From: Seison nebaliae
Taxonomy: Eukaryota
Length of the DNA stretch: 60,571 bases
Reading direction: 5' to 3'
Assembly (NCBI GenBank): GCA_023231475.1
Contig: JALJEE010002723.1
Coordinates: forward strand, 1-60,571
The position numbers were made by a program, and so were the translations under genes. Under the pieces are notes generated by a model that searched no databases, had not been told where the DNA came from, and saw nothing but the letters and a program-made list of their open reading frames with translations. Below, one piece after another: positions 4,376 to 60,347 of this stretch. Position 1 is the stretch's first letter; each line of letters begins with the position of its first letter.

Positions 4376-4721
4376 ATGATGATATCTACACGAAACTTTT
4401 ACCTATTTGCTTTATGTCTCCTATTATTCAATTTATTTGTTCCAAGTCAAGCAAGATATCTTTCAGAATCAGATAATGATTTAGCACTTACTCAAGTTCT
4501 TCTATTTTATACATTCCCATCTAGTCTCTCGAACATTAATTGAACAGAAAGATAAAAGATTCTTCAACGAGGGATTCTTTAAGAACATCGCTAAATCAGC
4601 AATTGCGAATGCAATCGTTTCGAAACTGATGGGTGGCAGTGCGAGAAGAGGAGCTAAGCATGGAGCAATGATGTCAGGTGTATGGCAAGGAGTAAGTAAA
4701 GTTCTGGGAAAGAAAAAATAA
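4376..4721 (+). CDS. Secreted cationic amphipathic peptide precursor 1 (antimicrobial-peptide-like), 97 aa, 2 exons (4376-4495, 4548-4721)
   Basis: Manual translation MMISTRNFYLFALCLLLFNLFVPSQA-RYLSESDNDLALTQ|KDKR-FFNEGFFKNIAKSAIANAIVSKLMGGSARRGAKHGAMMSGVWQGVSKVLGKKK*. Signal peptide, acidic propiece, KR site; phase-0 intron GTTCTT..AACAG (52 nt); paralog next door. Confidence 0.85.
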
Positions 4722-5028
4722 TTTGATAGAAATGATGAATAAAAATCTTCCATTGCTTGTTCTTGTCAATCAATTGATGTCCTTAGTTTTAACTATCAAT
4801 AAAACTTTTATGTTCCTCATTGTCGATTAACTGTTGACTCTTACTCCTTCATGTATTAATTTTACGAGTAACAATGAAAATAATGATATATCGAACTTCC
4901 AGTAAACGAAATTTATATGTTACAAATAGAAATAATTTCATTCGATTAAACGTTAACATAAATAATTATTTCTATTTCATATTCTTCAAATATTCCCATA
5001 TTGTAACTTCACTTGTCCAATAACGAAA

Positions 5029-5420
5029 ATGTTACGGAAATCGGTTTGTTCATTTCTTCTCATATTATTGATTATGGAATTACAAATTCCACTGATCAAA
5101 GCAAGGTATTTGGATTTCGAAGCAGAAGATTTATTTGATGAAGTTCGTTTTATGGAAATCTTCTTCTAATCGATTTTCAAATTGAAACATGTTCAATGTT
5201 ATTTTAAAACTATTTTTAGCCATTGGAAAAACGATTCATTTTCGGCAGTCGAAGCGGAGGTGGTGGTGGGGGAACTTTAAAAAATATGGCGATATCGGCA
5301 GCAGCTAGTGCAATTTTATCAAAATTGATGGGTGGTAGCGCTGGTTCTGGTGCGAAGGCTGGAGCATTGACATCTGGTGTGATGAGTGGAATAAGGAAAT
5401 TAATTGGAAAGAAAAAATAA
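5029..5420 (+). CDS. Secreted cationic Gly/Ala-rich peptide precursor 2 (paralog of precursor 1), 104 aa, 2 exons (5029-5142, 5220-5420)
   Basis: MLRKSVCSFLLILLIMELQIPLIKA-RYLDFEAEDLFDE|PLEKR-FIFGSRSGGGGGGTLKNMAISAAASAILSKLMGGSAGSGAKAGALTSGVMSGIRKLIGKKK*. Same architecture and intron position as the paralog; intron GTTCGT..TTTAG (77 nt). Confidence 0.85.
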
Positions 5421-7855: not shown

Positions 7856-10800
7856 TCAATCTATCGAACTCTTTACCGGTCGATTATTAGTATTATCGTT
7901 AGAATGCTCATCATTTGTGGTTTTGAGCTGACTCAGCTCGTTTTCTCTTTGACGTCTTCTGGAACCGTTAAATACTTGTAAGAAGTAACCTACAATATCA
8001 TTCTTGAGAATATAGGGATCACTCATAAATTTATCAGCTCTCATTTTCTGTTGTCGTTTCTCTTCTTCACGTTCTTCTTCACTCATATGATTGGGTGTTA
8101 TCGCTTGAATATTTTCCAATGATAACTTTTCTCCATTGATCAATTTATCAAATATTTCATAAATGTCTTTCATTTTCCTATTTGTACTTTCATCATTATT
8201 TCGATGATGTGCCAATTTCAATCGTTTTTCTGGTAATTCTAATGGAAAATAAACATCAGAATTTAAGATCTCTGTCATCTCTTTATAACATAATGTATCA
8301 CAATAATGTTTCATGTCCGTTTGTGCTTTATGACGACGACGTTGACAACGTTCTCCTTTAAATGGACGTTGTTGTGAATGAAGTTTTTGGCTTGTCGATG
8401 ATCCTTCTGGTGAGAAATTTGAACAACTGAAAACTTTTCTGGCAAGAGCGACATATCGGAATAACGGTTTTGGATTGATAAGAATGTTGAAAATCGTTTT
8501 ATCAATGATACCTTCATGAATATCCTTCTCTCCAAAAACATTAAAAAGATAAATTGTTAATCGAGAAATATCTCGAATTGAAATAGAGAACGAATGATTA
8601 ATAAGACAATTTGGTTCAATACCATCAACTTCACTGATACGGAATCCATGAGTACGAAGAAGATCAATTAGACTGAACAGTGTTCGAATGATTAGTGGAG
8701 AAAATTTTTGGAAGAGAATTTTCATTCTCATCGTAAAATGACTCTTACTACACACTTCATCCCAAAGACGTTCACTGTCATATAAAAGTTTCTTCTCATT
8801 CATTTCAATCGGATGTTCCTTATACCAAAATCTTATTGATTCTAAACGTTCATCTAACGATTGAGGAAAGAGTGAACGAGAATTTTTCGCGAATTTCGAA
8901 TCTTCAAAAAGCGATAATTTCGCTTTTCTCGAAATTAATTCTGGTTGTTCGTCATAAATATTCCTTTTACGTCGATAAGCTGAATAAGTTCGCCACATCA
9001 ATTTGTAATAAGTTGAAATATGATTTCTTTTCGTTCCAATTAGAGCTAAATCATCTTTCGTCATACCATAATCTGGTAATTTTCTATATGTCTTCCTCAC
9101 CGGAGAGAAGAAAGCGAATGATGATGAAGAAGAAGATGAAGAAGAAGAAGATGATGATGATGATGATGACGAGGATGAGAGTGAAGATGGTATAGATGGA
9201 ATAATTCTGGTTGATGTTCGATTTGATGCATTGATTTTCGATGTCAATGTGGAATATGGTGAACGAAAGGATTTATGTGAATTGAGATCAGACACCGATT
9301 TTGAACGGCGGCGGATACCAAACTTTTGAACGTTCGATAGAAGATAATCAGTATCCAATAATCGATATTGAAAATAAAGAAATGTTGCTAAGGAACAGAA
9401 GTTGCCTGAAAGTTTTAATTGTTCGATAGATTTGGAGGATAATCGTCGAGGTACTGACATTAATCCTCGAAATATTCGATAACTTTTATATTGAGAAACA
9501 TTTGAGAGATATTTCTCCATTGACAAATTGGAGAAGATGATTGATTCTTCTTTAGAGAAATCTTCTTTCGATATTCCATTACAATGAAGATATCGTTGAA
9601 ATATTTGATCTAAAGAGTTGCCTTCGAATTTAATGATTTCATTAACCATCTTCTGACGATAAGTTTTCGATGTTTCATTCGTATTCATCATTGGATCATC
9701 GCCATCAAATATTACTTTCCTAAATGGATTCGGATATTCATTCATCTTCACATCACAATCGAATGACCTTCTATTAAACGGTAACCAATGAACACTATGT
9801 GGCCATGGTTTCAATGAGAATAAATTGAATGCTGGTGAAAGACTAACGTTGTTGGGTATAGTGGAACTGTTCTCTAGTTCCTCAAAAATTAATCCTTTCT
9901 CTTTATCGTATGTGACTTTTGTATAATATTTATGATTATGATCTGGAGGTAAAATGACAAAATTGTCATGAAATGATCTGTTCATAATCGACAAATTATT
10001 ACTATCATTATTGTTGTTGTTGTTATTGTTATGTTCGATGTTATCATTCTTCATTATTAAATCATCATTTTCTTGAGAATTATAATTACTATTATTCTCA
10101 TTATTGTTAGATGAATTATTATTTGATATTCCATTTTTTTCTTTCTTCATACCATCTAAATGATTCTCATCATCACTATCATGATATCTCTTATTTTCAT
10201 CAGGTTGATCGCTATCATCATCTTGATCCATCATATCGTCGAATTCTTTCATTTCTTCATCAATCTGATCATTCTCCACGTCGGGTTGAAGGAAATCCCA
10301 AATTAGAATGTTGTCGTCATGAGAAGACGATACGATTTGGAAATCATCGAATTGTAATCGGAATACTCGTCCACTATGTTTCACAAGAGTTTGAACACAA
10401 ATATCTTCATTAGGCACTTTGGGATTGAGAGCTTTCTGCAAATCCCACACTTTAATCTTTCCATCATATGCTCCCGAAATTATTCGTTTACCATTAAATC
10501 GGATACATCTCACCAAATCATCATGACCATCTAATACTCGTAAGCAAGTGGCTAATTCCACATTCCATAAGCGAATAGTATTGTCCGATGATCCACTCAC
10601 CACCAATCGATTTCGATATTGAAGACAAGCGATACCACGTTTATGTCCTAACAACGTTCGTACATAAGTACATGTGGGTGTGGACCAAACACGAATATGT
10701 CGATCGCCACTTGCTGATACAATATAATCCTCATCAAAATCAACCACATTAACAGCAGCACGATGACCAGTTAATGTTCCCGCTAACACAACTTCCAATG

Positions 10801-23638: not shown

Positions 23639-23856
23639 CCGGAATGGAGCCAAATTTGGCAAAGTTCCAAATGAAGATATGAGATTTGGCTACGTTCCAA
23701 ATCAAGAAAAAATATTTGGCTACATTCCAAGTGAAAAACAAAGATTTGGCTACCTTCCAAATGGAAAAAAAAGATTTGGCTACGTTCCAAATGCAGATAA
23801 GAGGTTTGGCTACGTTCCAAATGCTTTTTTTTTAAAAAAAATTGGCTACATTCCGG
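23639..23856. mobile_element. MITE-like element: 15-bp terminal inverted repeats enclosing a 30-bp tandem array
   Basis: Left CCGGAATGGAGCCAA (23639-23653) vs right TTGGCTACATTCCGG (23842-23856), 14/15 complementary. Core TTTGGCTACGTTCCAAAT at 23655, 23685, 23715, 23745, 23775, 23805. Confidence 0.65.
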
Positions 23857-24726: not shown

Positions 24727-26165
24727 ATGACAGAAAATTTGTTAAACTTTTAAATTCATAAGTTCATTTTGAAAAATTATTCAATTTTTAGGAAATCAAT
24801 CGACTTCATTAAGAAAGAAGAAAAGTATCTGGCTCACAATTATGCTCCAGTCGAAGTGGTAATTCGAAGGGCGAAAGGATGTCGAGTGGAAGATGTGGAA
24901 GGACGTCAATATTATGATTTTCTTAGTGCATATAGTGCAGTGAATCAAGGACATTGTCATCCACGGATCGTTAAAGCTATGATAGATCAGGCATCAATTT
25001 GTACTTTGACCTCACGAGCTTTTTATAACGACTGTTTGGGCGACTTCTCTGAATATATGCACAAGATTTTTGGTTATGATAAAGTTCTGCCAATGAATTC
25101 AGGAGTTGAGGCATGTGAGACAGCAAACAAATTGGCGAGGAAATGGGCTTATAAAGTTAAGGGAATTAAAGAGAATCAAGCAGTGACTTTATTCGCGGAA
25201 AATAATTTTTGGGGAAGGTCAATCGCAGCAGTCTCTTCTTCAACGGATCCCTTAGCTTACAAGGACTATGGACCATTTGTACCAAATTTTAAAGTTCAGT
25301 TCATCAACTTTTTTAAGAAATCATTTCTTTTCAAGAATATTCCTTATGATGACGCTGAAGCTTTGGAGAACGAATGCAAGAATAATCCAAATATTTGTGC
25401 ATTTATGTTAGAACCGGTTCAAGGAGAAGCTGGTGTTGTAGTTCCATCTGATGGTTATTTGAAAAAAGTTCGTGATATCACCAAGAAATATAACGTTCTG
25501 ATGATTGTCGATGAAGTACAGACAGGTGTGTATTGTAAATCTTAAATATTTTGAATTGGAATTTTATATAAAAATTTTTATGAAATTTTAGGATTGGGCA
25601 GAACCGGAAAATTATTATGTTCCAATCATGAGAATGTTCGACCTGATATTGTTACGTTAGGGAAAGCGATGTCTGGAGGATTATATCCCATTTCAGCTGT
25701 TTTGTGTGATGATGAAATTATGTTGACAATAAAGGCAGGGGAACATGGATCGACATATGGTGGAAATCCGTTAGCTTGCAAAATAGCCAAAGAAGCAATT
25801 TCAGTTCAATTTTATAAAATTTATAATTTAATATTCTCATCAACGAATTGTAGACTATTATTGATGAAAAGATGTGTGAGAAGTCGATGGAATTGGGAGC
25901 ATACACGATAGATAAATTGAAGGTGATAGCGAAGAAATTTGGAGAAGTGAACGAGATCCGAGGAAAAGGATTAATGATTGCCATCGTTCTCAAAGAGAAA
26001 TCAGACGGAGGAAAACTCAGTCAAATTTTTGCTTCTAATGGTCTTTTGGCAAAATGCACACATAGTCATATAATTCGATTGGCGCCACCACTTATTATTA
26101 CAAAGAAAGAAATTGATGAATGTTTACAAATAATTGAGAAATCCTTAGGGCAATTCACTCGATAA
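24727..26165 (+). CDS. OAT: Ornithine aminotransferase, 5 exons
   Basis: [77 protein letters not shown] lysine in [28 protein letters not shown]. Introns 24741-24791, 25294-25335, 25526-25591, 25804-25853. Confidence 0.97.
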
Positions 26166-38613: not shown

Positions 38614-41600
38614 ATGAAATATTTTTTGAGCATTCTCATTCTTTTCGTCATGGTAAACGAATATCGAATAAGTACTCAAGTGCTCAAATTTAAGGAATAT
38701 GAACATTGCAATTTAATTAATGAAGCAATACGATTGTTTTACAAAAGACTTTATCTCAATCATACGATCCGATATGATGGCGAAATAAAATCCATAGGAA
38801 GATTGGGTGAATTTAATGTTTGGAAATATTTCCTTCAACAAGATCGACTTACTCGACCGAGTAAATACGTGAATAATTCCTACTTCTCTACTACAACAGA
38901 AAAACCGATAACTTTTGATTTTCAAGAATTTGCGACGGATTATCGTAAAATTTTTGATAAACAAACTCTTAAAATCGATTTTTTCAAATTGCCACCCTTA
39001 ACCTTTTATGGACTCATCACACTCTTATTCATCATTTCTCTTCTTTCTGCATTGCTCTCCGTCATTTCAATTAAAGTTCAAGCAGGTCGAAAAGTTTCTT
39101 TTTCATTTTTCTCAAAATATTAATTCGAATATGGACACCAGGAACCGCTTGATACATTCTTCACTGCCGGAGGTCGTGTTAGTGCTGGATTGACGGCTAC
39201 TCAAATTATTAGTAAATGGATGCCATTAAGTACAATAACAACACCGGGTGCACATTTCGCATTAGTTTAAATTTTCAATATTTTGTTAATTACTATAGTT
39301 TTAATATAGAGTGGTATTGGTGCCGTATTTTGGGCAGTCACCGGCTATTTTGTTCAATTAATCTTCACCGCCTTAATCTCGTTACAGTTCAAGGTAACCG
39401 CGCCAGGAGCTAAAACATTTCTTCAAGTTTAATTCTATTAAAGTGATTTGAACATCTCCAAAAAATTTAATTTAGGCAATTCAAGCAAGATATTCGAAAA
39501 GAACGCATATCTTCTTCATCGCTTTTAGTGTTCTGACCAATATTATTTATGCAACATTCTTAATTGCAGGTTAACTTTCGTTGGAGGTTTATCTAATAGA
39601 AATATATTGTTATTTTAGAGGGAGCAGTATTAATTGAAGAAGTAACTGAGGACACATCATCAATAATCGCTGCTCTTTTGTTGATTATTCTCTCAGCTTG
39701 TTTTATATCAATCGCTGGTTTCGGAGGAATCGTTTATTTCTCTTATGTAAATGTTGCAGTCATATTTTGTGTATGTTTCTACATATCTTATATTGTTAGT
39801 TTTGTCTTTCTAACTTTTTTTTGAATAAATCCAATACTTAGATATTTCATGGATACAATCAAGATATTTATACTCTACCAAATGCCCGATTACCACAACA
39901 ATGTGTCGGTTAAATGTTTTTGAATGAAAAAAATGTTCAATAATATATTTCAGGTGATTATAGTCATATTTACAAATTATTAAATTGTCTCAAATCAGCA
40001 AATGAGAATAATTACAAAAATTCCTTATTAACCGTTTTTACCGCTGATGGAGCATGGTATGGGGCCATAACATTTTTTAGCACTCTCGGAATGAGTTTCG
40101 TCGACCAATCCTTCTGGCAAAATGGTATTTCCACAAGACCAAGAAAACTCGTTGAAGGTTTCATCATCGGTGGTATGGCTTTTTATCCATTGTCCATGTT
40201 AATGGGCATCGCATCAGGTTCCATTTAATCTTTCCTCATTCTTCACTTTTTTCGTAACAGGAAGTGCTTTCGTTAGTTTACAATATTGGCAATATGTCGG
40301 TTATGATGTATTAACGGATATAAATGACGCTTTAAATAAATCGAATGCAACTGACGTGGTGAATAATATACGACGATCTTTACCAGATCTTTCTTTGGTA
40401 GATCCGATAGAATATTCAACTTCAAAATTAGAAATTGGTTATTTTATTATTTTCCATGTTAATTAATTAATTATAATCAATTTGTAGGAAATTTATTTTT
40501 AGCTGCTGCTAATTTGCTTTACGGATCAATTGGAAGTAAACTAGTCATGGTAATTGCTATGTTTAGTGTTCCCGCAACTGTCTCTTCTGAACTATTAGCG
40601 ATCGCCAGTATAATGGTATATGACGTGTATTCGACATATATTATGGTTTTAATTAATTTTATGTATAAATCGTTCATTTCATTCACTTAGCCATTCCGAG
40701 TAGTGAAATCATTCCAAACTTGTATATTATGTGGGAAGGATCGAAATTTCTATACACGACAACAAGAAAGACAAAATGAATTACAATATGGACAGACGCC
40801 TCATGACGTCCTTCCAATAGACAATAGTTTAATGACGAAAAGTCATTCCCCAACAAGTCTCTCTTCATTTCTTAAGTTCATTAAAAAAACTGAACATTTT
40901 TTCGCTTCTTCAGGAGATAGAAAGAAGACTAAATCGAACAAAAAGAAAGCACGAGCCAAACGGATGAGTTGTGAAGATCGTAATAATTTGAAGGTGAGAA
41001 GGGATCATGCTGAAGCGTTTAGAATATTCTCATCTAATTGAATGAAATATAAATTTTAATATTTTCAGAAGTGATACCTTAGATATCGACACACCCAGTT
41101 TACATGATACAGCACAATCATCAGATGCTGAATTACCCGATACATCATATCACGATTCTAATATATTGAAAACTGCACGTCAACGTCTTAGAATGCGAAT
41201 GAAGAAGTCAAAGATTTGTACATGTGAATCCGTCACACATTGTTTGGCTTGTGAAGAAGATTATCGGTGCACTTTTCATCAACAATTCTTCATCTTATCA
41301 TTTCACTTAGTTATGAGGAACTATACAATCCAAGAAAAGATGGCTTCACAGTCAAAGTATATTTATGTCCAATGCATGGTGCTTATCGCGAATATACAAA
41401 TCGTATAATTGCCAAACGAAAATGGTTTATGTTCTTGTCGCCTGTTATGGTTGCAGTTTGTGTAACAATTATTTTATTTATCGGAGTTGGTTATTTTCGT
41501 CTCTTTAACATTTACATATATATACCAATAGTTATCACCACCCGTTCTAACATCATTACTTGCCTTATTAACTGTAAGTGCTGTTCCGGCTTTAGCAGGA

Positions 41601-42668
41601 ACTGTTTTTTGGGCAAGACAAACTACCACAGCGGTCATGAGTTCAGTAATATGTGGAAGCATTTGTTCATTCCTAGCATGGATAATATCTAGTTATCAAT
41701 ATGCTTTGAATACCAATCGGCAATTCAAATTGAAAGATCTAAGTTTCTTTTTTAATTCCAAATAAAATGATAATTCAGATGCCAATATAGTCAATACGAA
41801 AGCGTTCGTCATTGGTTGTATTAGTGGATTGAGCGTCAGTACATTTCTTGACATTTTCGTAACGTTTATCCAAACGAATTCCTACATTCAACATTTATAT
41901 GATTTCATAAGAAACAGACGACATAACGTTTCCATAAAAGTTTCTAATTATTCATTAAATTATTCATTAAAATTCAAAAATTGTCTTACATTTCCAGCAT
42001 ATCATTTTCAATTATCACTCAGAATTGAATACCAAATATAATGTGGATGTTAAGAATGAAGTGTGGAACAGAACGAGGGATATCGACAATGCTCTCCGAC
42101 CATGGACGGAAATTCTATCAGATGATTTCAATGTCGGATTAAAAGTTAGTCTGCTGAAATTTTTTTATAAAATTATTTGAAATATTATAATCATTTTCAT
42201 TTCTCTTTTATTAATCATTTCATTAGAGTTATGAATTAGGACAACGACCAAGTTATCGTCATTGTGAGAATCAAGTATCAAATTTATTTCGAATGACAAC
42301 ATTAACTTTTATTTGTTGTACGAGTATTATCGTCATCATTTGGCCGCTAGTCGAATATATTATAAATGATTTTTATGGAGCTGAAGCAGTTATGGGTAGA
42401 ATTTCTTTTCATGTTAACTTTTTTATTAATAATTTAATATTTATATGAAACTACTTTTCAGTTCATCATCATCTTCTTTGAATCCTGGTTGATGATTGCA
42501 GCAGTGTACTGTGTAATTTCACCTATTTTCTACGAAGGAGTTGTTCTCTATCAATCCCATAAATATCGACAGAATTTGAATTTGCAAGATGGAATGATGG
42601 ACATAGAAGATCTACCAAATGATTCTCTAAGTCCTTCAGAATTGCCCAACATTGAATCTATTGACTGA
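38614..42668 (+). CDS. DUR3: DUR3-like urea/solute:cation symporter (SSS family), about 16 exons
   Basis: Spliced translation gives DTFFTAGGRVSAGLTATQIISKW, SGIGAVFWAVTGYFVQ, FKVTAPGAKTFLQAIQARYS, FVDQSFWQNGISTRP..GFIIGG, SSELLAIASIMVYDVYSTYI, CPMHGAYREY, SAVPALAGTVFW, RDIDNALRPW, collinear with DUR3 motifs. Stop TGA at 42666-42668. Confidence 0.82.
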
Positions 42669-42863: not shown

Positions 42864-45800
42864 TTATTTCGTGATATCCTTCAAAAATTTCATGTGATTA
42901 ATATAGCCACGATGATTTGGATCATAGAAACTGATTATACAGTTTATATCATCAGCGTCCACTTTTTTAGTATTCAATTTCATTAAAGTGTTTCGGAAAT
43001 CGTTTATTTCTATTTTTCCTGTTTTCTTCACGTCGATATTAACGAAAGTTTTCCTGAGTTCTTTTGAATGTTTACCAAGCTAACAAAAGAAGTGAAACCT
43101 ATGTATAAAAAATTTTTGGGAACTTTCTTTTTGAAAATGGAGAGCATTGAATTTATATCATACGTTTCAATACCTCGTGTGTTGGTTCGTGTTTGTCGAG
43201 TTACGTTTTTACCATTGGACATTTCTTGGTTATTTGCAGCAACTACATGAGGTGACTTCCCCGTGGTTAACATTGAATGAATACTTTCGTTGTTATTCTC
43301 ACTCTGCAATGAATGATATCGCATCGTATTATTCCTGGCGAATGGTCGAAGAAATTCAGTATAATTTACTCTGAAATTTATCGTTTAAAATGATGAATGA
43401 TAGTCTCCGAAAGAAACTTGTTATTGAGAGGATCGACAAATTTTGTTATTAATCTTTCTAAATCGTTATTGTTCAAACGAACTTCAAATTCTTGAAAAAT
43501 ACGTTTCAATTGATTTTGTTCAACGAATCCATTCTTTTGACTATCCATATGATGAAGCGCTGCTCGTAGTTGTTCGAAATTTATATCTAACTAAACTCAA
43601 GAAAAATCGAGAATTTATTAGAAAAATTAATTAAGAAAACTTTGTTTCTTAGAATGATATCTAGAATCTCTTTATCCGAATTTAATTTATTGGATCTTTT
43701 CATAAAATCACTGTCTCCAAATTGTGGAGGATTCCTTTTTGAATTTGCAAAATGGGCGCTCTTTTTCGAATAACCGAAATGTCGTGCAAATTCCCAAAAA
43801 TCTAAACATTTATTCTTCTTCAACAAGAATGTATCCCATAGTTTCTCGACTTCATTCCTCTTAAAAGGTTCATCAAAATTCAATCTATTCCACGTAATTT
43901 TAAATTGAGAAGAATTCTGAAAATTGATTTAAAACCTTTTAAGAAATAAATAAAATTTCTCTTGAGACATTTGTCCATCATTCATATCATCAATTTCTTC
44001 AAATTCTTTTTCCACTATATTGAATCGATGCTTTACCACATATTTCAATATGCGATTCATCTAAAATAATTAATAAAATTAAAAATTATACTTGAATAAT
44101 TAACTTCTTCAATTGTTCTCTTTCCGGGATCATGTTTAGTTGTTGGAAATTGGGAATCCGAACGAGAAGTACTAGAATTACTGAACGGGGTTGCTCGACT
44201 ATCGACTTTGCTAGTAGGAAAAATCAGATGATTCTCTTGTTTCTTATTATATCCAGTTTCCGTCCAACCAATTGCTGAATTCTTCAACGAGGAATCGAAT
44301 TGTGATAACCAATCACCATATTTCACTTGTCCTACAATAAGGAATAATTTTGAAAAAAATATAATTAAAAATCACCTGAATTAGTCAGGGGAACATTTTG
44401 AAGATATTCTTCAAATTCTTCGTCAGTAAATTTTATACCAAGTTTATCTTCAATTATTTCTCGAAATTGCATCACTCGAATTGAACCATTTACTTGACGA
44501 TCGTTCATTCTGTTCAATAAAAGAATAATTTGATATAAAGAAAAGTGGAAGGCATTAACTTAAATTTTTCCATGAGATTCAAAAAATCATGATGCATTAA
44601 TCGTAATAAAGAATTCTCAACGAACTGTAAATTTAATTTCTGTTCATTTTCCAAATATTTGAAGTGTCTAAAAGAAGTTTAGGAATGGATGAAAACACAT
44701 TGAAAGGTTAGTCAGTTGATTAAATAAACTTATTATGTTCTTTTGATTCATTCTCTCTAATAATTTTATTTACCATTCCATATTGACCTCTAGAATTGAA
44801 CACTTCTAATACTTTCTCATAAGGGATCGACGTTTTGCATTCACTCAACAAATTACAACGATCGAAAAACACATCCAATAAATTCGCTTCCAAAGGCAAA
44901 CCGAATTCGTTGAGAATTTTCCAAAATTCCATTCGTGAAATCTTTATGAAAATTAATTTGATTATTTAAATAAGAAAAGTCTAGGAAAACTTTTCCTTCT
45001 TTCTTTTTATCTAATTTCCTGAACTTATGTCTCAGTTGTTGATATCCATCTGATATTATATCGTTTATCCAATTGTCAATAGAAGAAATTATTTCTTTCC
45101 GACTTTTTGTTTCATTTTTAGTTGAACGAATTCTTCCGATAAATTCTTCATTCTCCAATAACTCTCGGACATCATTGCAATCTAACGGATTTTTATGTGT
45201 TCCTTGAGAGAGACTGACGGAAAAATTATCATAATGAAATTTGAGGATAAATTTGAACATTTTCCATAATTTTTCATATTCATCAAGTCCCACCGATACC
45301 GAATTGTTTAATAGAAATGAATATATTTCGGCTTTGTATACTTTCTTCGTTTGATTTCCTTTAGTATTTGGGAGAATATTCATTAACTCTAATTCTCTAC
45401 AAAAGTTTTGTAAATAATATTCGTATGAAATAATCTACTTACTCGTTTCTCAAAGATTCTTTTAAGAATTCAATCATTTCATCTACTGACACTGAATTGT
45501 TTCCTGATGTGGTTGAATGTAATTGGTACATTGATCGAGAAACGGGATTCCTTGAAGAAAAGTGGTCGCTATTTTGTCCTGAATTGTTCTTCTCCTCAAT
45601 ACTTAAAACAGCATCGAAAAACTGACTATATCTAAAGAAAATTTTTAATGTTAATTTTATTAGAAAGAAAATATAACGATATTTCTTTCTTTGATTCCAA
45701 ATTGAATTTCGAGAGAAGTTTATTGAAATCATTCGAATTCAGATGAAATTTTGCACCCAAAATATTTGATAAAATATGATGTAAGGATTGTTTGGAAACA

Positions 45801-46484
45801 ACGCCATTGCCTAAACGGTAAGGAATATTGAAAAAAAATTTTCAAAAAATATTTAAAAGTTTTCCAAAAATTATTGGAAGGAACCTTTAGGGTCGAAGTT
45901 GATAAATTTACATTTTATTTCATGAGAATTTGATTTGACTTTCATACGAATATGAGTTTTTAACTCATTCACTTCTAATTCATCTATATTCGAAATTTTG
46001 TGAAGAGGTGAATTGGATGGAGGAATATTAGAGAAATGTTCTTATTCTATATTAGAATGAAAATTTAGTGAAAAATCCAACCGATTCGATTGAGAACATT
46101 CATCTTCTTGGTATTCTTTTTCCGATATCTATCCTTGTACGATTCACGTGACCATTGTGAAATGGATGAAGAAACTCGTGAATTCAGTTGTTGATAACTT
46201 CTCGACATCATACTACTTCGTCTGGACGATATACGAGAGAACAAGTTCTGATTGGGAACTGAAGTACCGTCGTAATTGGCATCTCCAAATGTTTGAGTTC
46301 GTCTCATAAGTGACTTTGATTGTGGAAGGAGATCAGTATTACTGAAACGTTTCTGTCTTAAAATTGGATGTTCGATCGGGATTTGAAGTGGAGTTCGATT
46401 TCGGTGAGTCGAAGGATTTTTCTCCTTAAATTCATTTCCTCTTGAAAAACTGGATTGAACAACATGAGCTGCAACAGCTGCCAT
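42864..46484 (-). CDS. Multi-EF-hand calcium-binding protein, EFCAB6-like, many short introns
   Basis: Repeated EF-hand-like segments (FINFDPKG, FRKLDKKKEGK, FYDPNHRGYINHMKF*), plus LDFWEFARHFGYS...PPQFGDSDFMKRSNKLNS resembling EFCAB6. Full exon structure only partly resolved. Confidence 0.7.
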
Positions 46485-49592: not shown

Positions 49593-52500
49593 ATGCATCG
49601 ACAAGAAATGACGGCTTCTCCTCAATTTGATATCATATCGTCCTCTGCTTCTATGACTGGAAATCGACGTATGATGCATAGTGCAGGATTAGCTACTAGT
49701 AGTGGCATTTCTAGTGCCAACCCATTTGGTATTATCGATATGCCGAACCCGAACATCTCACAAAACGTTCCTAAACCAGGAACCTTTCGTTACGCAATGA
49801 AAAAATTGTTCGAAACATTATCACTACCAGGTGGAAACACAAGATCATTGTTTATTTTTGGAGAGAAGAATTTCATCAGACGACAAGCAAAAAAACTGAT
49901 TGAATGGGGTCCATTTGAATATCTTGTTCTGTTGACAATTATAGCGAATTGTATCGTTTTGGCATTAGAAGAGCATCTTCCGAATGGCGATAAAGCGACA
50001 CTTGCATTGGAATTGGAAAAGACGGAAATGTATTTCATTATCATATTTACGGTGGAAGCAATGTTTAAGATTGTTGCTTTGGGTTTTATTCTAAACAAGA
50101 AAGCGTATCTCCGAAATGTGTGGAATATTATTGATTTTATAGTAGTTGTTACTGGATTTATCACTGTATATGCAGCAAGTAGTTCGTTCGACTTAAGAAC
50201 ATTGAGAGCTGTTCGAGTACTTCGACCATTAAAATTAGTGTCAGGAATACCCAGTTAAATTTTTTTTTAAAATTCAATTCAATTTCTTTTTTCGCAATCT
50301 GAAGGTTTACAAGTTGTTCTTAAATCAATCATCAAAGCGATGATTCCACTTATTCAAATTGGTTTATTGGTCTTATTCTTCATTGTGGTCTTCGCCATTA
50401 TCGGTCTAGAATTTTATAGCGGAATTTTCCATTTCACTTGTTTTGATAAAGAAACTAGTTATTTTTTTACTCATTTCGGTTTTAATAAAATATTTTTTAA
50501 AAGATGAAATATCTTTCAAAGGTGATGTAACTCCTTGTTTATCTAATCCGGATAAACCGTTCAGTTATTCAATTTTAATAAAATTTGAGTTCTTTATTTT
50601 TTTCAGTTTCGAGTGGAGCTTTCCGATGTGAAGCTAACTTCGGATCAACATCTCAATGTCGATTATATTGGGAAGGTCCTAATTATGGTATCACCAGTTT
50701 CGATCATATCGGTTATGCCATGCTTACCGTCTTCCAATGCATAACAATGGAAGGATGGACTGATGTTCTTTATTGGGTTAAATTTTAAGTAAATCTTACA
50801 ATTCATTAAATTATTTTAATAGGCAAATGATGCGGTTGGTCATTTGTTCAATGCACTCTACTTCCTGACAATTATCGTTATTGGATCGATGTTTATGTTG
50901 AACTTAATTTTGGGAGTACTTAGTGGGTTTGTGAATTTCATTTGAGATTATTTTAATGAAAAATTCTAAAATTTATTAGAGAATTCGCTAAAGAAAGAGA
51001 ACGGGTGGAAAACCGTCGGACATTCCTCAAATCTCGACGACAGAAACAAATTGAGAAGGAAATTAATGGATATATGAATTGGATATTTCGAGCTGAAGAA
51101 TCGTTATTAAGTGAAGAACATACCACCGATGCTATCAAGAGACAAATATTGGAATGTTAAACTTTTTTATGAGTTTTATTAATTTCGAATAAAATGGAAT
51201 TATAGCGAGAAGATATGCAGCTCAAAAGAGTATTAAAGGACCAATGAAAGCTGATGAAATGGAGGAAGAGGAAGACGATGATGAAGATGAGGAGGATGAT
51301 GAATATGATGATAATCCGTGGAAGGAATATTGTGATTGTAAGAAATTTAAAGCCAGAATGCGATTACGTATGAGAAAAGCAATAAAAACACAAATATTTT
51401 ATTGGACAGTTATTCTTCTCGTGTTTTTGAATACGGTTTGTGTAGCTGTCGAACATTATAATCAACCACAATGGCTCACAGATTTTTTAGGTTTGAAATA
51501 TTTTTCAATTTGAAAAATTGAATTTTATTATAAATTTAGCATGGGCTGAATATGTTTTCATACTTCTTTTTCTGAGTGAGATGTGGTTTAAGATGTATGC
51601 TCTTGGTCTATCACTCTACTTTAAATCGTCATTCAACATCTTCGATTGTGTTGTTAGTAGGAAATATTTACTCCCTTCATTTTATCAACTCATTTGCAGG
51701 TAATTGTTGGAAGTATATTTGAGATTGTGTGGGCGACATTTAAAGACGAATCTTTCGGTATATCTGTTTTACGATCTTTGAGATTATTACGAATATTCAA
51801 AGTGACAAGGTTTCTCCCTCATTTTTTTCTTTTCTTTAAATTATTTTCGATGTTTTTTTTAAGATATTGGGCTAGTCTTCGAAGTCTTGTCATTTCGTTA
51901 CTCAATTCAATGAGATCAATTATTTCTCTTCTATTTCTATTATTTTTATTCATTCTGATTTTCGCTCTATTGGGAATGCAATTGTTTGGTGGCGAATGGA
52001 ACTTCCCTGAAGGTAAACCACCCGCCAATTTCGATACTTTTGTAGTTTCATTATTGACCGTTTTCCAAATTCTAACTGGAGAGGATTGGAACGAAGTAAT
52101 GTATGATGGAATTCGTAGCAAGCAACGTGGTAGTGGTGGAAATGGATTATTATATTCTATTTTCTTTATAGTTCTCGTCATTTTCGGAAGTTATACATTG
52201 TTAAATGTCTTTTTGGCTATTGCTGTCGATAATTTGACAAATGCACAAGCAATTGAAGAAGCTGGAAAAGAGTTGGAAGAGAAGATTGGGAAGGATCTTC
52301 CTCCTACTGCTAATGGTGCAAATAATCCGAATGCTGCACTGAATGTTGTGTCACGGGCATTTGGTGGATTAAGTCGTGGAACGACTCCATTACCATTTGG
52401 GGCAGCAAGACAAGCTGCATTGCAAGTACAAAGTCGTGCTGCCACACCATTTGATTCGTCGAACAGTACCGCTACTCCTGGAATGTTAATGTTCTTATCT

Positions 52501-55500
52501 TCGATGAAAGATACTTCACCACATCAACATTTACAAAAATTGCAACAAAATCAACCATTAATTTCCACGTTTGGTAGTAATGCTGCTGAGAATGCTTATC
52601 ATGCCGTTTTAAAAGAACAAGAGATGCAAAGACAACAACAATTGGCTATGCAATTAGCTTGGCAACAACAATTGGAAGAAGAAGAACGTCAAAGAAAAAT
52701 AGCTGCACAACGACCAACAGGAGCCTTAGCTATTGCCGGTGGATTTTTAGGAGGTGCTATGGCAAGTATGAAAGCTGCAATGACAAACACTACTCCAACT
52801 ACTACTTCAGCCAATACTATGTTGTCTCAACAACAACAACAACCCCAACAATCTACCGTACATGATTTGAAAGCGACAACTCCAAATATAAATGCGAAAG
52901 TTGATTTAGATTATATTCCGGGATTAGATGATGAAGATGAAGTAGATGAAATAATGTTTCCTGATGAAAATGAAGAATTGGAAGCACAAAGAAAGAAACA
53001 AGAATTGGAGAATAAAACTAAAAAGAAGAAGAATGATGAAGAGAAATGTGAAGAAAAGAAAACACGACGACCTCCTCCAATCAATCCTTATTCATCTATG
53101 TTCGTTTTTAGTGAAACGAATCCAATAAGACGTCTTTGTCATTCATTAGTAACGATGAGATATTTTGAAATGGTCATCATGTTTGTAATTTGTGCAAGTT
53201 CAATTACACTGGCAGCCGAAGATCCAGTAGATCCGGAATCGTTAAGGAATACCGTTCTCAATTATTTCGATTATGGATTTACTGCTGTCTTCACTTTTGA
53301 ATTATTGCTAAAAATTATAGATTTGGGTGTTGTACTTCATCCACATTCATTTTGTCGTGATATCTGGAATATTATTGATGCCACCGTTGTATTATGTGCT
53401 ATCGTAGCATTCTTCTTTGTGGGTGATACGGAAGGTGGAGCAGGTAAAAATTTGAATACGATTAAATCATTCCGCGTTCTTCGGGTACTTCGTCCACTTA
53501 AAACAATTAAACGTGTTCCGAAACTCAAAGCCGTTTTCGATTGTGTTGTCAATTCGATAAAGAATGTATTGAATATTCTTATAGTGTATCTACTTTTCCA
53601 ATTCATATTCGCTGTCATTGGAGTGCAATTGTTTAATGGAAAATTCTTTTATTGTACCGATCAATCAAAATCGACAGAAGTGCAATGTCAAGGATATTTT
53701 TTTGAATATCAAGACCACGATATCGATTCATTCCCAACGAAAAGAAAACGCGAATGGTTAAGACATTCTTTCCGTTATGACAATGTAGTAGAAGCGATGT
53801 TGACTCTATTCACTATACAAACGGGAGAAGGATGGCCAAAAGTTTTACAGAATTCCATGGATTCGACTGTCGCTGATCATGGTCCCGAACCCGGCAATCG
53901 CCGTATTTTAGCCATATATTACATTACTTTCTTTATTGTCTTTCCATTTTTTTTCGTTAATATTTTCGTGGCTCTCATCATTATCACATTCCAAGAACAA
54001 GGTGAACAAGATCTTATCGAAGGTGACTTGGAAAAAAATCAGGTTATACTACAATTAACGATAGATCTTTAGAATTACTTTTTTTCATTTTAGAAATCAT
54101 GTATTGATTTTGTTGTGAATGCTAGACCAGGTAAACGATATATTCCAAAAAATAAAGGTAATTTCCAATATCGAGTATGGCAATTAGTTGAATCGAACTC
54201 ATTCGATTATTTTGTGATGTTGATGATTGCTTTGAATACAATAATTCTTATGATGAAAGTTTTATTAAGTTCTTCTAATTCCTTCTTATGACTTTCCTCT
54301 GATATTGTAGTTCCACAATCAACCAGTAGAATTTCAAAATGTTTTTCGAAATTTGAACGTTTTCTTCACTACTATCTTCACAATCGAATGTATACTTAAG
54401 ATTATCGCTTATTCTCCTAAGGTTCGATTGGAAGATGTCGATACAATATTGTTGTAATACTTTTTGTAGAATTATTTCAAAGATGAATGGAATCTCTTCG
54501 ATTTCATTACTGTTGCTGGTTCGATAACAGATGTATTGGTTTCTCAATTCGGAGGGAATGTTCTTCTAATATAATTTCTTTAATTTTCATTTATATTTCT
54601 TTTGAAGGAAAATTTGAATATGGGAGCATTACGATTATTTCGTGCGGCTCGTCTCATTAAATTGTTGCGACAAGGATATACGATTCGATTGTTACTTTGG
54701 ACATTCATCCAATCTTTCAAAGTTCTCTTTCTCTTCATTTCTACATTTGGATTTTATTAAATACTGATGACAATTAGGCATTACCTTACATCTGTTTATT
54801 GATGGCAATGTTGTTCTTCATTTACGCAATTATTGGAATGCAAGTCTTTGGTAATTTAGCATTGGATGTGGATGGAAGTGCGATTAATCGACATAATAAT
54901 TTCCGGAATTTTCTAACAGCACTACTCTTACTATTTCGGTTAATCCAATTCAATTTTTTAAGTTTTTGATTAATCGTAATTTTAAATATCATAAAGATGT
55001 GCAACTGGTGAAAGTTGGCAAGCAATAATGATGTCTTGTTTAAGTGGATCTAAATGCGAACCTCTTTCCGGTCAAACTAAATGTGGGAATACATTAGCTT
55101 ATATCTATTTTTGTACTTTTATTTTTCTTTCATCTATGCTCGTTAGTTGATATTAATTGATAATAATATATTGAAATTTATTTGTAGATGTTGAATTTAT
55201 TCGTTGCTGTAATCATGGATAATTTCGATTATTTGACCAGAGATTCCTCTATCTTAGGTGCTCATCATCTCGATGAATTTATTAGAGCATGGGCTGAATA
55301 TGATCCGGCTGGGACGTTAGTCTTTAATTTCCAATGTTTAACTCTAATTCGAATGCTTAGTGGAAGGATACCTTATATTGATATGTATGAAATGTTAAGG
55401 GATATGGAACCACCAGTTGGTTTCGGTAAGAAATGTCCATATAAATTAGCGTATAAACGTTTGATACGAATGAATATGCCAATTTGTGTAGATGGAACTG

Positions 55501-57755
55501 TTTATTTCACTTCAACATTATTCGCACTGGTCAGATGTTCACTTCTGATTAAAATGCCAACATTAGCTGATAGTCGTGATCAAGCGGATAAAGAATTAAG
55601 AACTGTTATCAGGAAACTTTGGCCAGTACAAGGGGTGAAGAAACTTGATCTTTTAGTTCCACCTCATGATCATATACATGGGAAAGATAATCGAAGAGTA
55701 CTGACCGTGGGGAAGATTTATGCAGGAAAATTGATTTTAGAGAATTATCGTGCATATAAATTGAGTAAATCGAGAGGATATGAATCAAGAGGTAGACAAC
55801 CGTCAATTTTTTCACAGTTAGTTGGTGCAATGCGTTGTAATACTTCCAATTTCCCAACGGAAAACACTGGAACGCATAATACTCCGAATAATATGGGTAC
55901 GATTATTGGACCAAGTTCAGCAACTGGTGGTGGAGGTGTCGTTGTGAGTGGGGCAGGTGGAGGATTGACAGCTGGTTCACCTCATGGTTTTGTTCTTCCT
56001 GGATCTCAAATAATTAATAATCGTATGAACGAACCAGTTATTGGAAATATTCATGATCCAGCCAACGAAAGGAATTATATGCAATCACCAGATCAATTTT
56101 CAAATTGGATAGTAAATAGTCGTCGAGGAAGTATCGATAATGGACTTAATAATGTTGCACAACATTTATTTGCTCTATCTCCCACAAATTCTAGACGTGG
56201 ATCGATTTATGGAAGTGGAGGAACTTCTGGTGGAATGAAATCAGATTCACGATTGGGTTCTCTCATAAGAAAGCCATCTATGGCACTTCGACGTTCCATG
56301 AGTCCGTATGGAGGAAGAGAAGTTTTAGATAATAATGTAGTTGCTATGCCTAATGAAGGATTAGCAAATAATCAGTTACAAACCTCACAACATCATCCGA
56401 TGAATACATCTGTTGTAATGAGAACTGATACAAATAATACTTCAAAAGTAACTTCAATTCCTTTAAATGTTATTTCTACTTCATCTCAAATTCCAATGAG
56501 TCAACAGTTAGTTGAAGTTCAACAACAGCAACAACAACAACAACAACAATTATCATTTAATCAAACTCATCAACAACAAACATCACTCAATAATAATAAT
56601 AATAATAATCAGCAATCTTCTTTTATTAATCAATTTCCACATCATCAACAGCAACAACAAAGACAAGTACCACCAAATATGATAAATGAACATTTTGAAC
56701 AAATTGAACAACAACCAAATATCCTCTCAAAGCAACAACAACAACAACAGCAATGGAATTCAACAAATAGCGATTCTATTAATATTAGTGAAGCACCAAT
56801 ATTTGTAGTTAGTCCTCCTAGTCGACCTACATCACCAACAAAGAAAGCGCAATCATCAGCGATAACAATCGATTCAAAGAATCAGATGGAGACCTGTCTA
56901 ATTGATGAAATGGAAGGTCAGTTTAATACTGATATTAATCTCCAACAAATTCCAGGCAAATTAACTCAATTACAATATTCGGTCCAATCGCATAAAACAA
57001 ATATGGAAATTGATGAGTTAACTTCTCCTTCGATGGCCGGCAGACAAACCGCTCAAATTGATCCTCAATTACAATTCACACAATCTCAATTGCAATTCGG
57101 CGATAATTTATTTGAAGAGAACTATAATAATAACATTATACGTCGTCCTCCCTTACAATCTAGTCGTGCTCTCGATCGTCCGTCCATCATTCCTGATCAA
57201 CTAACTGATATTCTAAATCAACAGAATCTTTCTCAACTTCGAACTTCACATGTTATCGCATTGAATGAGACCACAGAAGATTCGATAAATTCAGAATTAA
57301 TTTCTGAGGGAAATAATTCAATTAATCAGTATGAAGATGATGAATCGACGGAAGATATCGAAGAGAATGAATACGAAGAGGAAGAAGAAGTTCAGTATGA
57401 AGACGAAGAATATGACGAAGAGGAAGAAGATGAAGAACTAGCATCTTTTGAAAATGAAGAAGAATATGAGACGTACAGCGAAGAAATTTACGAATATGAA
57501 GAAGAAGAAGGAGAAGAAGAAGAAGAAGAAGAAGAAGAAGAAGAAGAAGAAGAAGAAGAAGAAGGAGAAGAAGAAGAAGAAGGAGAAGACGAAGAAGAGG
57601 AATTCGAAGAAGAAGAAGAATTAGAAGAAATCGAAGAAGCCAATACTAATTTGAGTGGTCAGTATATCGAAGAAGAAGATGAAGATGATGACGATAATTA
57701 TGAATATTATGAAGTTGATGAAGAAGGTGACGATAATTCTTATGAAGAAAGTTAA
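49593..57755 (+). CDS. cac: Voltage-gated calcium channel alpha-1 subunit, Cav2 (P/Q/N/R type; cacophony/unc-2 class), 18 exons
   Basis: EWGPFEY, S4 [18 protein letters not shown], four pore glutamates (TMEGW, TGEDW, TGEGW, TGESW = EEEE), [21 protein letters not shown], Cav2-type [39 protein letters not shown] region [12 protein letters not shown]. 17 introns of 43-58 nt restore the conserved protein. Confidence 0.96.
57497..57630 (+). repeat. Coding (GAA)n repeat encoding the poly-Glu tract of the Cav2 C-terminus
   Basis: gaagaagaag... with occasional gga/gac interruptions. Confidence 0.9.
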
Positions 57756-58238: not shown

Positions 58239-59067
58239 CTTCTTTTCCAATAGCACTATTCACTATTACATGTATAAAATCTTTACCGATATATAAAATG
58301 ATTATATTTAATTCAACTTTAAAAACTCTTTCGAGAAAAACTAGTTTGCTATTAGAAATTATATTGGTCGATTATTAGCATGAAACCTGATTATTAATTC
58401 ACTTAACTTTATAGCTTAACAGTTGCTGTGATGTGAAAGGTAAAGTTTTATTAATATTGTACTATTGAATTCACAATATTTTTCGGATGCAATTTCTACT
58501 TTACTATTAATAATTAATTATAAGATATCATATCGTGGATTTTTTGAAATATCAAAAATTAATGTGACATATACGTAATAGGTCTAAAGATAATATAGGA
58601 GTATTCGTAGAAAATGAACAACAAGTCGGTGATTCAAGACCAGCTTTATTGATTCACCTTTATTCACGTAAATCTAATTTGTAAGAATATTGCTGAGTAA
58701 ACGAAAGATTATTCATAATTTCTTTATTGCGTTATTACTATATCTTCAGCATTTGATTAATTACTTCACCTTTAGTATAATAATATCTTTCACATCATTT
58801 TCTACCAGAAAGTTAATTTCCGTTTATCTTTTATGTGTTTTATTATACATATTGTGATAAATTAACTATATACAAGTATGTAGTACAAATATATTAAATT
58901 TTACCTTTTACCAACTTCATTCACACGCTGGAATTCTTTTTATAGTGTTTAATTGATCTGTTTTACAATAAATAATATATTTTAAGTTTTCCTCTGATTT
59001 ACTATGATTTGGTAAAATATTCCCTTGTTATTTTACTTTATCTTTTTGAAAATTTACGATAAAATCT

Positions 59068-59139
59068 TGCGTCAGTCTGTAATGGAACCCGGATCAATTG
59101 CTTGGAAGACAACCATGCTAAACTTTACACCACTGACGC
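59068..59139 (-). pseudogene. tRNA-Gly(TCC) pseudogene
   Basis: Minus strand GCGTCAG..CTGACGC acceptor stem and CT-TCC-AA anticodon loop are intact. The D-loop lacks GG, the T-loop is TTCCATT (B-box G lost) and the T-stem is mismatched. Confidence 0.8.
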
Positions 59140-60234
59140 ACGTTCTCGTATAATAATCATCTTATTTATAGTTATTTGACTGCAATATTTAAATTATTCT
59201 TTTAAATCTAACATACCTCTAACATAACATCATATATTACTCCTAAATTTTTTTATCTTGTTGTGTTATGTAATCATTGTTAGCTTGAAATATTTCGCGA
59301 TTATTCAAAGAGATTTCTAAACTACATTTTAGATAAACTAAAAATTCCAAATCGTTAAAAACCTTCTCATGAGACAGTGATTTTAACTTTATGATCTTCC
59401 ATTGTTGATAGTTTTTCCAATTGCTTCTTTAGCAATTCCTAGTTTTTCCAATTGTACAATTCCTAAGCAATTGCTTCTGGCTAACAAGTGGGAAAGTGTG
59501 TTTCATTGATTCCTCATTCATTTGTATTTCACTTAACGATTTGGGTTGTATCACCGTTCTGGTTTTTTAACGGGTATCAATGACCTTAAAATAGGGTACT
59601 GCGATGTTCCGGATAGAGTTCATAAACTTTGTCATAATGGGAAAGTTATGGAAGACTACCATATGTTTCCAACGTTTATGATATATATATATCATAGACG
59701 ATACAATAATCTGGTCCATACAATAATCTGAACATCGTTGCGGTCGATTTATCTGTATATTCCATAATATGAATATTTATTTATATTATTATAATTTTTT
59801 TACTTGGAATCCCCTGGAGGAAAAAAGAATATATAAATTGTGAACTATTTGTCTAATACGTACAAGCTCACGACCCCGTGGATAAAAACCAAATCAGATG
59901 AGTATAATCATGTTGAAAACCTCGAGCCGACGACTCGTCGAAGAAATAGACGATGAATAATCCATTTCATAATAGTTAGAAAAGAATTGAATTCATCCCA
60001 CTGTTCGAAGGTTGTAAATGGGACGTCCGAGTTATCGATACAATTTTGATGAGAGATAAATACCTCCTGAACAGCAAAAGGGGAAACGTAAATCTTAACG
60101 TAAATGTCAATATTATATATTATATTACAATTGAGAAGAGGTAGATTATAATCATATAATTCTAACTGGTTGTCTCAGAAATTCAAATTCTATATTCTTC
60201 TCTTGTTACTAGTTTGTTCTATTATTATTTTCAA

Positions 60235-60347
60235 GGCACGATGGCCGAGTGGTCTAATGCGCCAGACTCAAGATTACATCTTACATTAGACATAATGTGT
60301 ATTCTGGTCCTCAATTGAGTGCGCGGGTTCGAATCACGCTCGTGTCA
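60235..60347 (+). tRNA. tRNA-Leu(CAA) with a 29-nt canonical intron (60273-60301)
   Basis: GGCACGA/TCGTGTC acceptor, GGCCGAGTGGTCTAA A-box, CCAGA-CT-CAA-G[intron]T-TCTGG, long variable arm, GGTTCGAATC B-box; one T-stem mismatch. Confidence 0.88.

Follow-up and report, generated by a model that had tools for sequence, protein, structure and literature searches.

GTT in place of GTA or GTG at the start of introns in a contig of Seison nebaliae

The consensus of the 5' splice site is regarded as fixed in genomes with many introns, where one RNA reads many thousands of sites. Shifted pairing of the U1 small nuclear RNA (snRNA) does occur at rare human sites; such a +1 register was reportedly described by Roca and Krainer in 2009 at sites of the GUUAAGU type, which begin with GUU, are rare in humans and need a G at +6. 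In this paper we looked at the introns in a 60,571-nucleotide (nt) stretch of DNA from the marine seisonid rotifer Seison nebaliae (contig JALJEE010002723.1 of assembly GCA_023231475.1; the whole stretch is called here the window), and mainly at those of its Cav2 calcium channel gene, which begin with GTT instead of GTA or GTG. In contrast to the human sites, GTT is the rule in Seison and it is +5G that is enriched. The closest described system is Entamoeba, in which the donors are GUUUGU(U) and U1 has co-evolved to ACAAAC (Roy and Bowser, 10.1101/2022.06.08.495308). In both systems roughly nine introns in ten carry U at +3, the intron ends are GT..AG and the introns are AT-rich. However, Entamoeba is intron-poor, has changed at both +3 and +4 and uses a near-invariant hexamer (88-90% GUUUGU), whereas Seison is an animal with up to 17 introns per gene in which only +3 is fixed and +4 to +6 are variable (26 distinct hexamers among 55 GTT donors, GTTTGT only once). 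The shifts related to METTL16/SNRNP27K and to N6-methyladenosine (m6A) in U6 (PMC11732430, PMC10581693) also represent a lineage-wide change at one donor position that is tied to the recognition machinery, but those shifts are between A and U at +4 and belong to the U6 step, whereas in Seison +3 has changed and U is unfavoured at +4. In Fritillaria borealis the splice code of an animal genome was altered globally; yet 95% of its introns are non-GT/AG, owing to a duplicated U2AF and to changes of m6A in snRNAs (PMC13326754), whereas Seison keeps GT..AG and changes one internal base.

We curated 62 predicted introns in nine genes of the window, found on both strands over a span of 51 kb. Their junctions were taken from homology (17 introns of Cav2), from an NCBI model (17 introns of a transporter gene) and from a codon-based model in which +3 to +6 were scored flat (28 introns). 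The base at +3 is T in 56 introns, G in 3, A in 2 and C in 1, so that a purine at this position, as in the GTR consensus of U2-type introns, is found in only 5 of the 62. All 62 have GT..AG ends, GT/GC..AG being a search condition for the 28 codon-model introns, and the median length is 49 nt. U12-type introns have the 5' signal RTATCCTT, and none of the intron sequences examined starts with it. When only the 34 junctions fixed by homology or by the NCBI model are taken, 32 are GTT. The predominance of GTT donors is real in this contig.

In Cav2 all 17 introns are GT..AG and 43-58 nt in length, and the spliced gene is a 2442-codon frame with no internal stops. It was compared with 11 Cav2 homologues, taken from molluscs, a brachiopod, an annelid, nematodes and arthropods, and with every one of them it shares 937-1062 identities. 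For each intron, 390-1045 alternative junction pairs were scored against these homologues, with no splice-signal term and with no requirement for GT/GC..AG. The junctions proposed in an earlier note, which was made from the sequence alone, ranked first (tied with equivalent slides) at 13 of the 17 introns. The remaining ones, introns 2, 3, 6 and 13, are in variable loops and their proposed junctions ranked 6, 119, 3 and 26. When the choice was restricted to GT-AG, GC-AG and AT-AC pairs, the proposed junction was the best at 16 of the 17, and at intron 3 a marginally better canonical pair starts at 50559 with GTTCAG, likewise GTT; the donor chosen by homology is GTT at 17/17. All the GTT donors that had been claimed for this gene are in place (Table 1), and the open frame and the homology ranking agree on them. 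Breaks in paralogue alignments at 50255 and 50778 were set aside as evidence, since the codons at these points would match GT even if no intron were present. It was also found that in run X2 a second lineage, with a depth of ~6, aligns over the Cav2 region; 12 of its 68 indels were displayed and all 12 fall within introns 2 and 3, which agrees with the predicted intron boundaries. This second lineage can be seen in runs X1 and X2, the contigs of which behaved as genomic ones, at 50467-50592 and 51861-52599, with about one fifth of the depth and an exon divergence of ~16% (116 differences in 739 bases). At its end (57399-57755, + strand) the Cav2 frame would encode an acidic tail that is rich in glutamate and very long, provided that this part is unspliced.

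For the smaller genes, the counts of the earlier note (2/2 in the peptide genes, 1/1 in HtrA2, 2/2 in AKAP17A-like, 5/6 in PNPLA2 and 3/4 in OAT) were reproduced by the +3-blind codon model. The raw, uncurated output of this model over the nine regions is 57/73 GTT; three of the non-GTT calls in it are false ones in Cav2, where homology overruled them. In the gene labelled DUR3 a count of 14/15 had been given, which was superseded: the NCBI protein P0241, mapped back onto the DNA, gives 15/17 (15 GTT, one GTG and one GTC), and a fragment of the gene matches P0241 at 100%. Across the eight genes of the earlier note the predominance of GTT stands, but the tally of 44/47 does not and is now 45/49; the ninth gene gives 11/13. 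In this ninth gene 10 upstream predictions (6 GTT and 4 GTG) were excluded as unreliable, a GTC prediction at 45103 was dropped because the reading frame continues across it, and a GTT intron of 51 nt at 43935 took the place of a GTC prediction of 111 nt at 43968. The OAT intron at 25294 coincides with a 14-residue gap in the alignment to a solved OAT. The tested fragments of the AKAP17A-like gene, the DUR3-labelled gene and the ninth gene, which we presume to be EF-hand-like (two fragments), gave no Pfam match; the labels DUR3 and AKAP17A-like are those of the earlier note.

Table 1. Cav2, the other intron-bearing genes and the non-GTT donors of the window. A slash marks a junction; matches to the donor consensus are counted outside +1..+3.
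Feature	Position	Strand	Remarks
Cav2 calcium channel alpha-1 gene	49593..57755	+	17 short introns, all donors GTT
Cav2 donors 1-9	50254, 50458, 50564 (or 50559), 50777, 50927, 51156, 51491, 51653, 51810	+	GTT
Cav2 donors 10-17	54043, 54259, 54422, 54560, 54722, 54939, 55142, 55316	+	GTT
Cav2 intron 1 (GIP S/LQVV)	50254..50304	+	GTTAAA; insect alternative-exon edge 1-2 residues away
Cav2 introns 2 and 3	50458-50503, 50564-50606	+	
Cav2 intron 5 (VLSG/EFAKE)	50927..50979	+	GTTTGT; insect alternative-exon edge at most 3 residues away
Cav2 intron 13	54560..54607	+	GTTCTT; same place as a Drosophila isoform indel edge
Cav2 intron 15 (LLFR/CATGE)	54939..54996	+	GTTAAT; Anopheles alternative-exon edge at most 4 residues away
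Transporter gene (labelled DUR3 in the earlier note; NCBI hypothetical protein SNEBB_011039, P0241)	38650..42668	+	17 introns, 15 GTT
Ninth gene, 3' part (outside the set of the earlier note)	42864..46030	-	11 of 13 curated introns are GTT; 838-codon open frame
Patatin-domain (PNPLA2-like) gene	20029..22839	-	6 introns, 5 GTT
Ornithine aminotransferase (OAT) gene	24727..26165	+	4 introns, 3 GTT
HtrA2-like gene and AKAP17A-like gene	14436..18994	-	donors 15148; 18913, 18640; all GTT
Two paralogous short peptide genes	4376..5420	+	one GTT intron each (4496, 5143)
Exception CAG/GTATGT	22561..22601	-	5/6 matches
Exception CAG/GTGTGT	25526..25591	+	5/6 matches
Exception CAG/GTGATT	44332..44375	-	5/6 matches
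Exception CGA/GTAAGT	45397..45442	-	4/6 matches
Exception CAA/GTCTCT	40857..40913	+	3/6 matches; in frame, stop-free; NCBI model
Exception TCG/GTGCAC	41267..41310	+	1/6 matches; contrary to compensation

The interiors of the introns here contain 49% T and 33% A. Against this composition the excess of T at +3 gives p = 4e-12 and the deficit of A gives p = 1e-8 (62 introns); against the base that follows GT inside the introns (T in 35/62) the excess of T gives p = 6e-9. Selection of candidate introns by a filter that is independent of homology (GTN..YAG, 42-60 nt, AT-rich) gave no information, with a T fraction of 0.50 that is equal to the one at 22-40 nt. As a control we used genomic loci with ~80% identity that were found by a scan with Adineta OLA1 and are termed here bdelloid-like; they represent two species only, L002 and L003 being uncounted near-copies of L001. 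Their OLA1 introns are 49-61 nt long and begin with GTA in 6/7 cases in L001 and 6/7 in L013, with one shared GTT site. A self-trained, +3-blind model applied to the whole L001 gave A 26, T 4 and C 1 (31 introns of 40-70 nt) and the same model applied to the whole window gave T 47, G 7, C 3 and A 3 (60 introns); the difference between T 47/60 and 4/31 is significant (Fisher p = 2e-9). The introns of L001 and L013 resemble those of Seison in their length of ~50 nt, in their interior composition (T 0.49 and A 0.32-0.33 in both) and in their weak +4 to +6, but +3 is A in 26/31 introns of L001 and T in 56/62 introns of Seison. Since the bdelloid-like introns are equally short and AT-rich and yet use GTA, such introns do not alone produce GTT, and the argument that AT-richness is insufficient for +3T is borne out by a control of matching length and composition (GTA 26/31; 12/14). 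The +3 state is distinct from the bdelloid state.

Analysis of the 56 GTT donors shows A at -2 in 34, G at -1 in 17 and A at -1 in 27. At +4, A is found in 22 (p = 0.005 versus the base after TT), making GTTA the commonest tetramer, and T is depleted (18/56, p = 0.004). G is found at +5 in 14, compared with 6% G, and at +6 in only 2, and A at +5 is at background (18/56). These counts agree with the earlier description of +3 as nearly fixed T (56/62), of +4 to +6 as variable and of +5G as a minority. The residual CAG/GT.AG preferences keep the normal register, and the U1 pairing score of 55 GTT donors is above null in the normal register (p = 0.02) and at null in the shifted and bulged ones (p = 0.25 and 0.27). 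An excess of C at +4 (p = 0.0016) was gone against the base-after-TT background (p = 0.12). At the other end of the curated introns no branch-point motif is prominent at a fixed distance from the acceptor, and the acceptors (n=61) are TAG in 35, CAG in 16 and, fairly commonly, AAG in 9.

The non-GTT donors can be informative regarding the role of +3. By scoring the consensus matches at -3 to -1 and +4 to +6, it was found that the six non-GTT donors have a mean of 3.8/6 other matches versus 2.2 for the GTT donors (p = 0.006), and that the exon ends with CAG in 3/6 of them versus 3/56 (p = 0.009). Among introns with both a GTT and a non-GTT site at a distance of 40-70 nt from the acceptor, the GTT site is the one used in 16/18, versus 8.3 expected. 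This test takes no account of reading frame or of a preference for length, and for the 28 codon-model introns it is in part circular. The normal register, the compensated non-GTT donors and the preference for GTT in competition together suggest that +3U adds recognition strength, and +3U looks like a positively read base.

Standard U1 pairs through ACUUAC with GUAAGU (10.1101/2022.06.08.495308), and in this pairing +3 faces position 6 of U1. A U-to-A change at U1 position 6 would be predicted to produce just this outcome, a single swap at +3 with the rest kept in register. We find the balance evenly poised for the proposal that the spliceosome reads U and not A or G at +3, most probably via this predicted change. 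According to this mechanism the major spliceosome of the Seison lineage would read U at +3, its U1 would carry ACUAAC in place of ACUUAC and pair with +3U, and ancestral GTA donors would have turned into GTT donors at the same positions once the lineage had separated from bdelloids. The leftover GTA/GTG donors would persist through better pairing elsewhere or through a retained canonical copy of U1. A U1 change is supported by Entamoeba, the only published +3U lineage found, which has a compensating U1 (10.1101/2022.06.08.495308).

Rfam gave only three matches on the window, all of tRNA type. A pattern scan for U1 in the contigs of a genome collection found 92 loci, and 8 of the 10 that were submitted to Rfam were confirmed as U1. 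Many bacterial genome bins of this collection (L081-L165) carry eukaryotic U1 arrays, some beside U2 or 5S rRNA, which is host contamination. A U1-like contig was found once each in the DNA runs X1 and X2; aligned to the reference L145:281-490 it spans L145 292-358 with 12 differences, one of which is listed. Its depth is 5.4 versus ~14 and 15.2 versus ~28, and its flank has a G+C of 18/30 versus 29% in intergenic DNA here, so it may be another organism's.

Several points weigh against a changed U1. Position 6 is unreadable in the U1-like contig. The data are one contig with junctions predicted from DNA, the compensation test consists of six sites, among which GTGCAC (41267) matches at only 1/6, and the limits of the competition test given above count on the same side. 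Even for a changed U1 the signal at +4 to +6 is weak (mean score 6.3 of 11). In addition, a standard U1 is kept in most of the lineages whose donors are atypical (Saccharomycotina, Micromonas, Thecamonas, Giardia and Trichomonas; 10.1101/2022.06.08.495308), and it was argued that commitment of the 5' site takes place mainly during the transfer to U6/U5 and not at U1 (PMC11732430).

These last observations also favor another option, possible though doubtful in our view, in which U1 has kept its sequence or is not needed. Recognition of +3U would then fall to a protein (U1-C, LUC7, PRP8 or SNRNP27, in a diverged form) or to the U6 step, in which +3U could form a wobble pair with the G of the ACAGA box. 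Such reading fits all the donor statistics equally well; moreover, the U1-C of Entamoeba is highly diverged and the ACAGA of U6 has been described to pair with donor positions +2 to +6 (10.1101/2022.06.08.495308), and U1-independent splicing is known (PMC11732430). Yet a shift driven by U6 is expected to be Entamoeba-like, with +4U and +5G, whereas here T is depleted at +4 and G is found at +5 in a quarter of the GTT donors. Pairing of a standard U1 in a shifted (+1) or bulged register is an improbable explanation: GTTA as the commonest tetramer fits with it, but the shift expects +5A, +6G and +7T, and here +6G is rare, +5A is at background, G is enriched at +5 and not at +6, and only the normal register scores above null.

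The possibility that +3 is not read at all, and that T results from a mutation bias toward T or from the avoidance of TpA in introns that are short and intron-defined, can draw on the high T content of the introns, on T as the commonest base after GT inside them and on GTT as 40% of all GTN in the window. However, 90% T at +3 is far above both backgrounds, the neighbouring +4 to +6 are not fixed as T and the bdelloid-like introns keep GTA with the same composition, which makes this explanation very improbable. We give as little credit to the GTT introns being new insertions of a mobile element (introner) with a GTT end. Intron remodelling is evident, with no introns in the OLA1 gene here versus 7 in the bdelloid-like loci, but the likeness among the 62 introns does not exceed that of shuffled pairs (best pairwise score 34 versus 30-44), a 5-base end shared with the exon, as expected of target-site repeats, is found in only 1/62, and four Cav2 introns are found at insect exon edges; very old mobile elements would escape the similarity and target-site tests. 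That the pattern is local to the contig or an artefact of junction calling is scarcely credible: the junctions are predicted, the blind models made the three false calls in Cav2 and 28/62 junctions rest on the codon model, but the pattern is common to nine genes on both strands and to the junctions fixed by homology and by the NCBI model.

The age of the introns was addressed by comparing the Cav2 introns with exon edges, defined as isoform differences within ten insect species. This gave 8 distinct edges at residues 60-1650, with 472-483 taken as one and edges >1780, in the poorly aligned tail, omitted. Four of the 8 edges are at most 4 residues from Seison introns 1, 5, 13 and 15, compared with a chance expectation of ~10% per edge (a hand estimate), and at the other four there is no Seison Cav2 intron. 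Many more of the 17 positions presumably match exon borders of vertebrate Cav2; a search for papers on Cav2 intron positions gave nothing relevant. Conversion of existing introns is favoured, with evidence from no more than four positions. The earlier proposal that old introns were converted is supported for at least some introns: introns 1, 5, 13 and 15 are near insect edges, and the introns have no common sequence indicative of a mobile element. The genes of the window fall into intron-free or intron-rich ones, and OLA1 (5942-7138, +), a receptor Ser/Thr kinase (2236-4035, +) and a WD40 gene (7856-12376, -) are long unbroken frames. The named best matches of OLA1 include rotifers, at 61-63%, and a quick tree of OLA1 places the window on a long branch.

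A literature search, at the level of titles and abstracts for most papers, found nothing on GTT donors in Seison, in rotifers or in other animals. In the available text of the Seison genome paper (PMC8351084) the word 'splice' appears once, in the methods, and a term search of its two supplements gave no match. PMC12256650 does not mention splicing, introns or snRNA, and in the accessible parts of PMC12690905, PMC10125929, PMC3464624 and PMC10639083 the GTT donor pattern is not described. The novelty that was claimed for the pattern is therefore limited by Entamoeba, for which +3U donors with a co-evolved U1 were published (10.1101/2022.06.08.495308), and extends to a change of +3 only in an intron-rich animal, which appears new as far as the literature search reached.

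Other features of the window include the two peptide genes (4376-4721 and 5029-5420, +), which are tandem paralogues with a signal-peptide-like start, an acidic pro-region and a KR site, followed, by eye, by a Gly/Ala-rich cationic peptide that ends with GKKK; from their sequence they look like precursors of secreted antimicrobial-type peptides. The WD40 frame, which we take to be beta-TrCP-like, has ~800 residues beyond the propeller with no Pfam domain. Ordinary tRNAs are found at 19531-19603 (tRNA-Thr) and 59067-59140 (tRNA-Gly), and a 113-base Rfam tRNA match at 60235-60347 (+), which is absent from ARAGORN, is possibly an intron-containing tRNA. A 30-base tandem repeat with 5.7 copies is located at 23654-23823, between the PNPLA2-like and OAT genes, and a second, loose repeat at ~615-870.

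With a little less than even confidence, we suggest that an intron-rich animal recoded its 5' splice site genome-wide, with thousands of donors changing from GTA to GTT alongside a one-base change in U1, and possibly by way of a stage with two types of U1, which the remaining GTA/GTG donors would still use. In the +3U case already published, that of an amoeba with few introns, only a small number of sites needed to change. A switch at a single position in an intron-rich animal, with bdelloid relatives that use GTA at the same intron size, gives a direct test of the co-evolution between a reader and its targets. It raises the questions of whether U1 has changed, whether old introns were converted or replaced, whether two U1 types coexist and whether +3 is set by U1 or by a U6 or protein step. 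On the practical side, gene finders that were trained on GTR donors may mis-annotate the Seison genome. If the proposal is true, Seison would be an animal example of an snRNA that co-evolved with many targets, with canonical relatives available for comparison.

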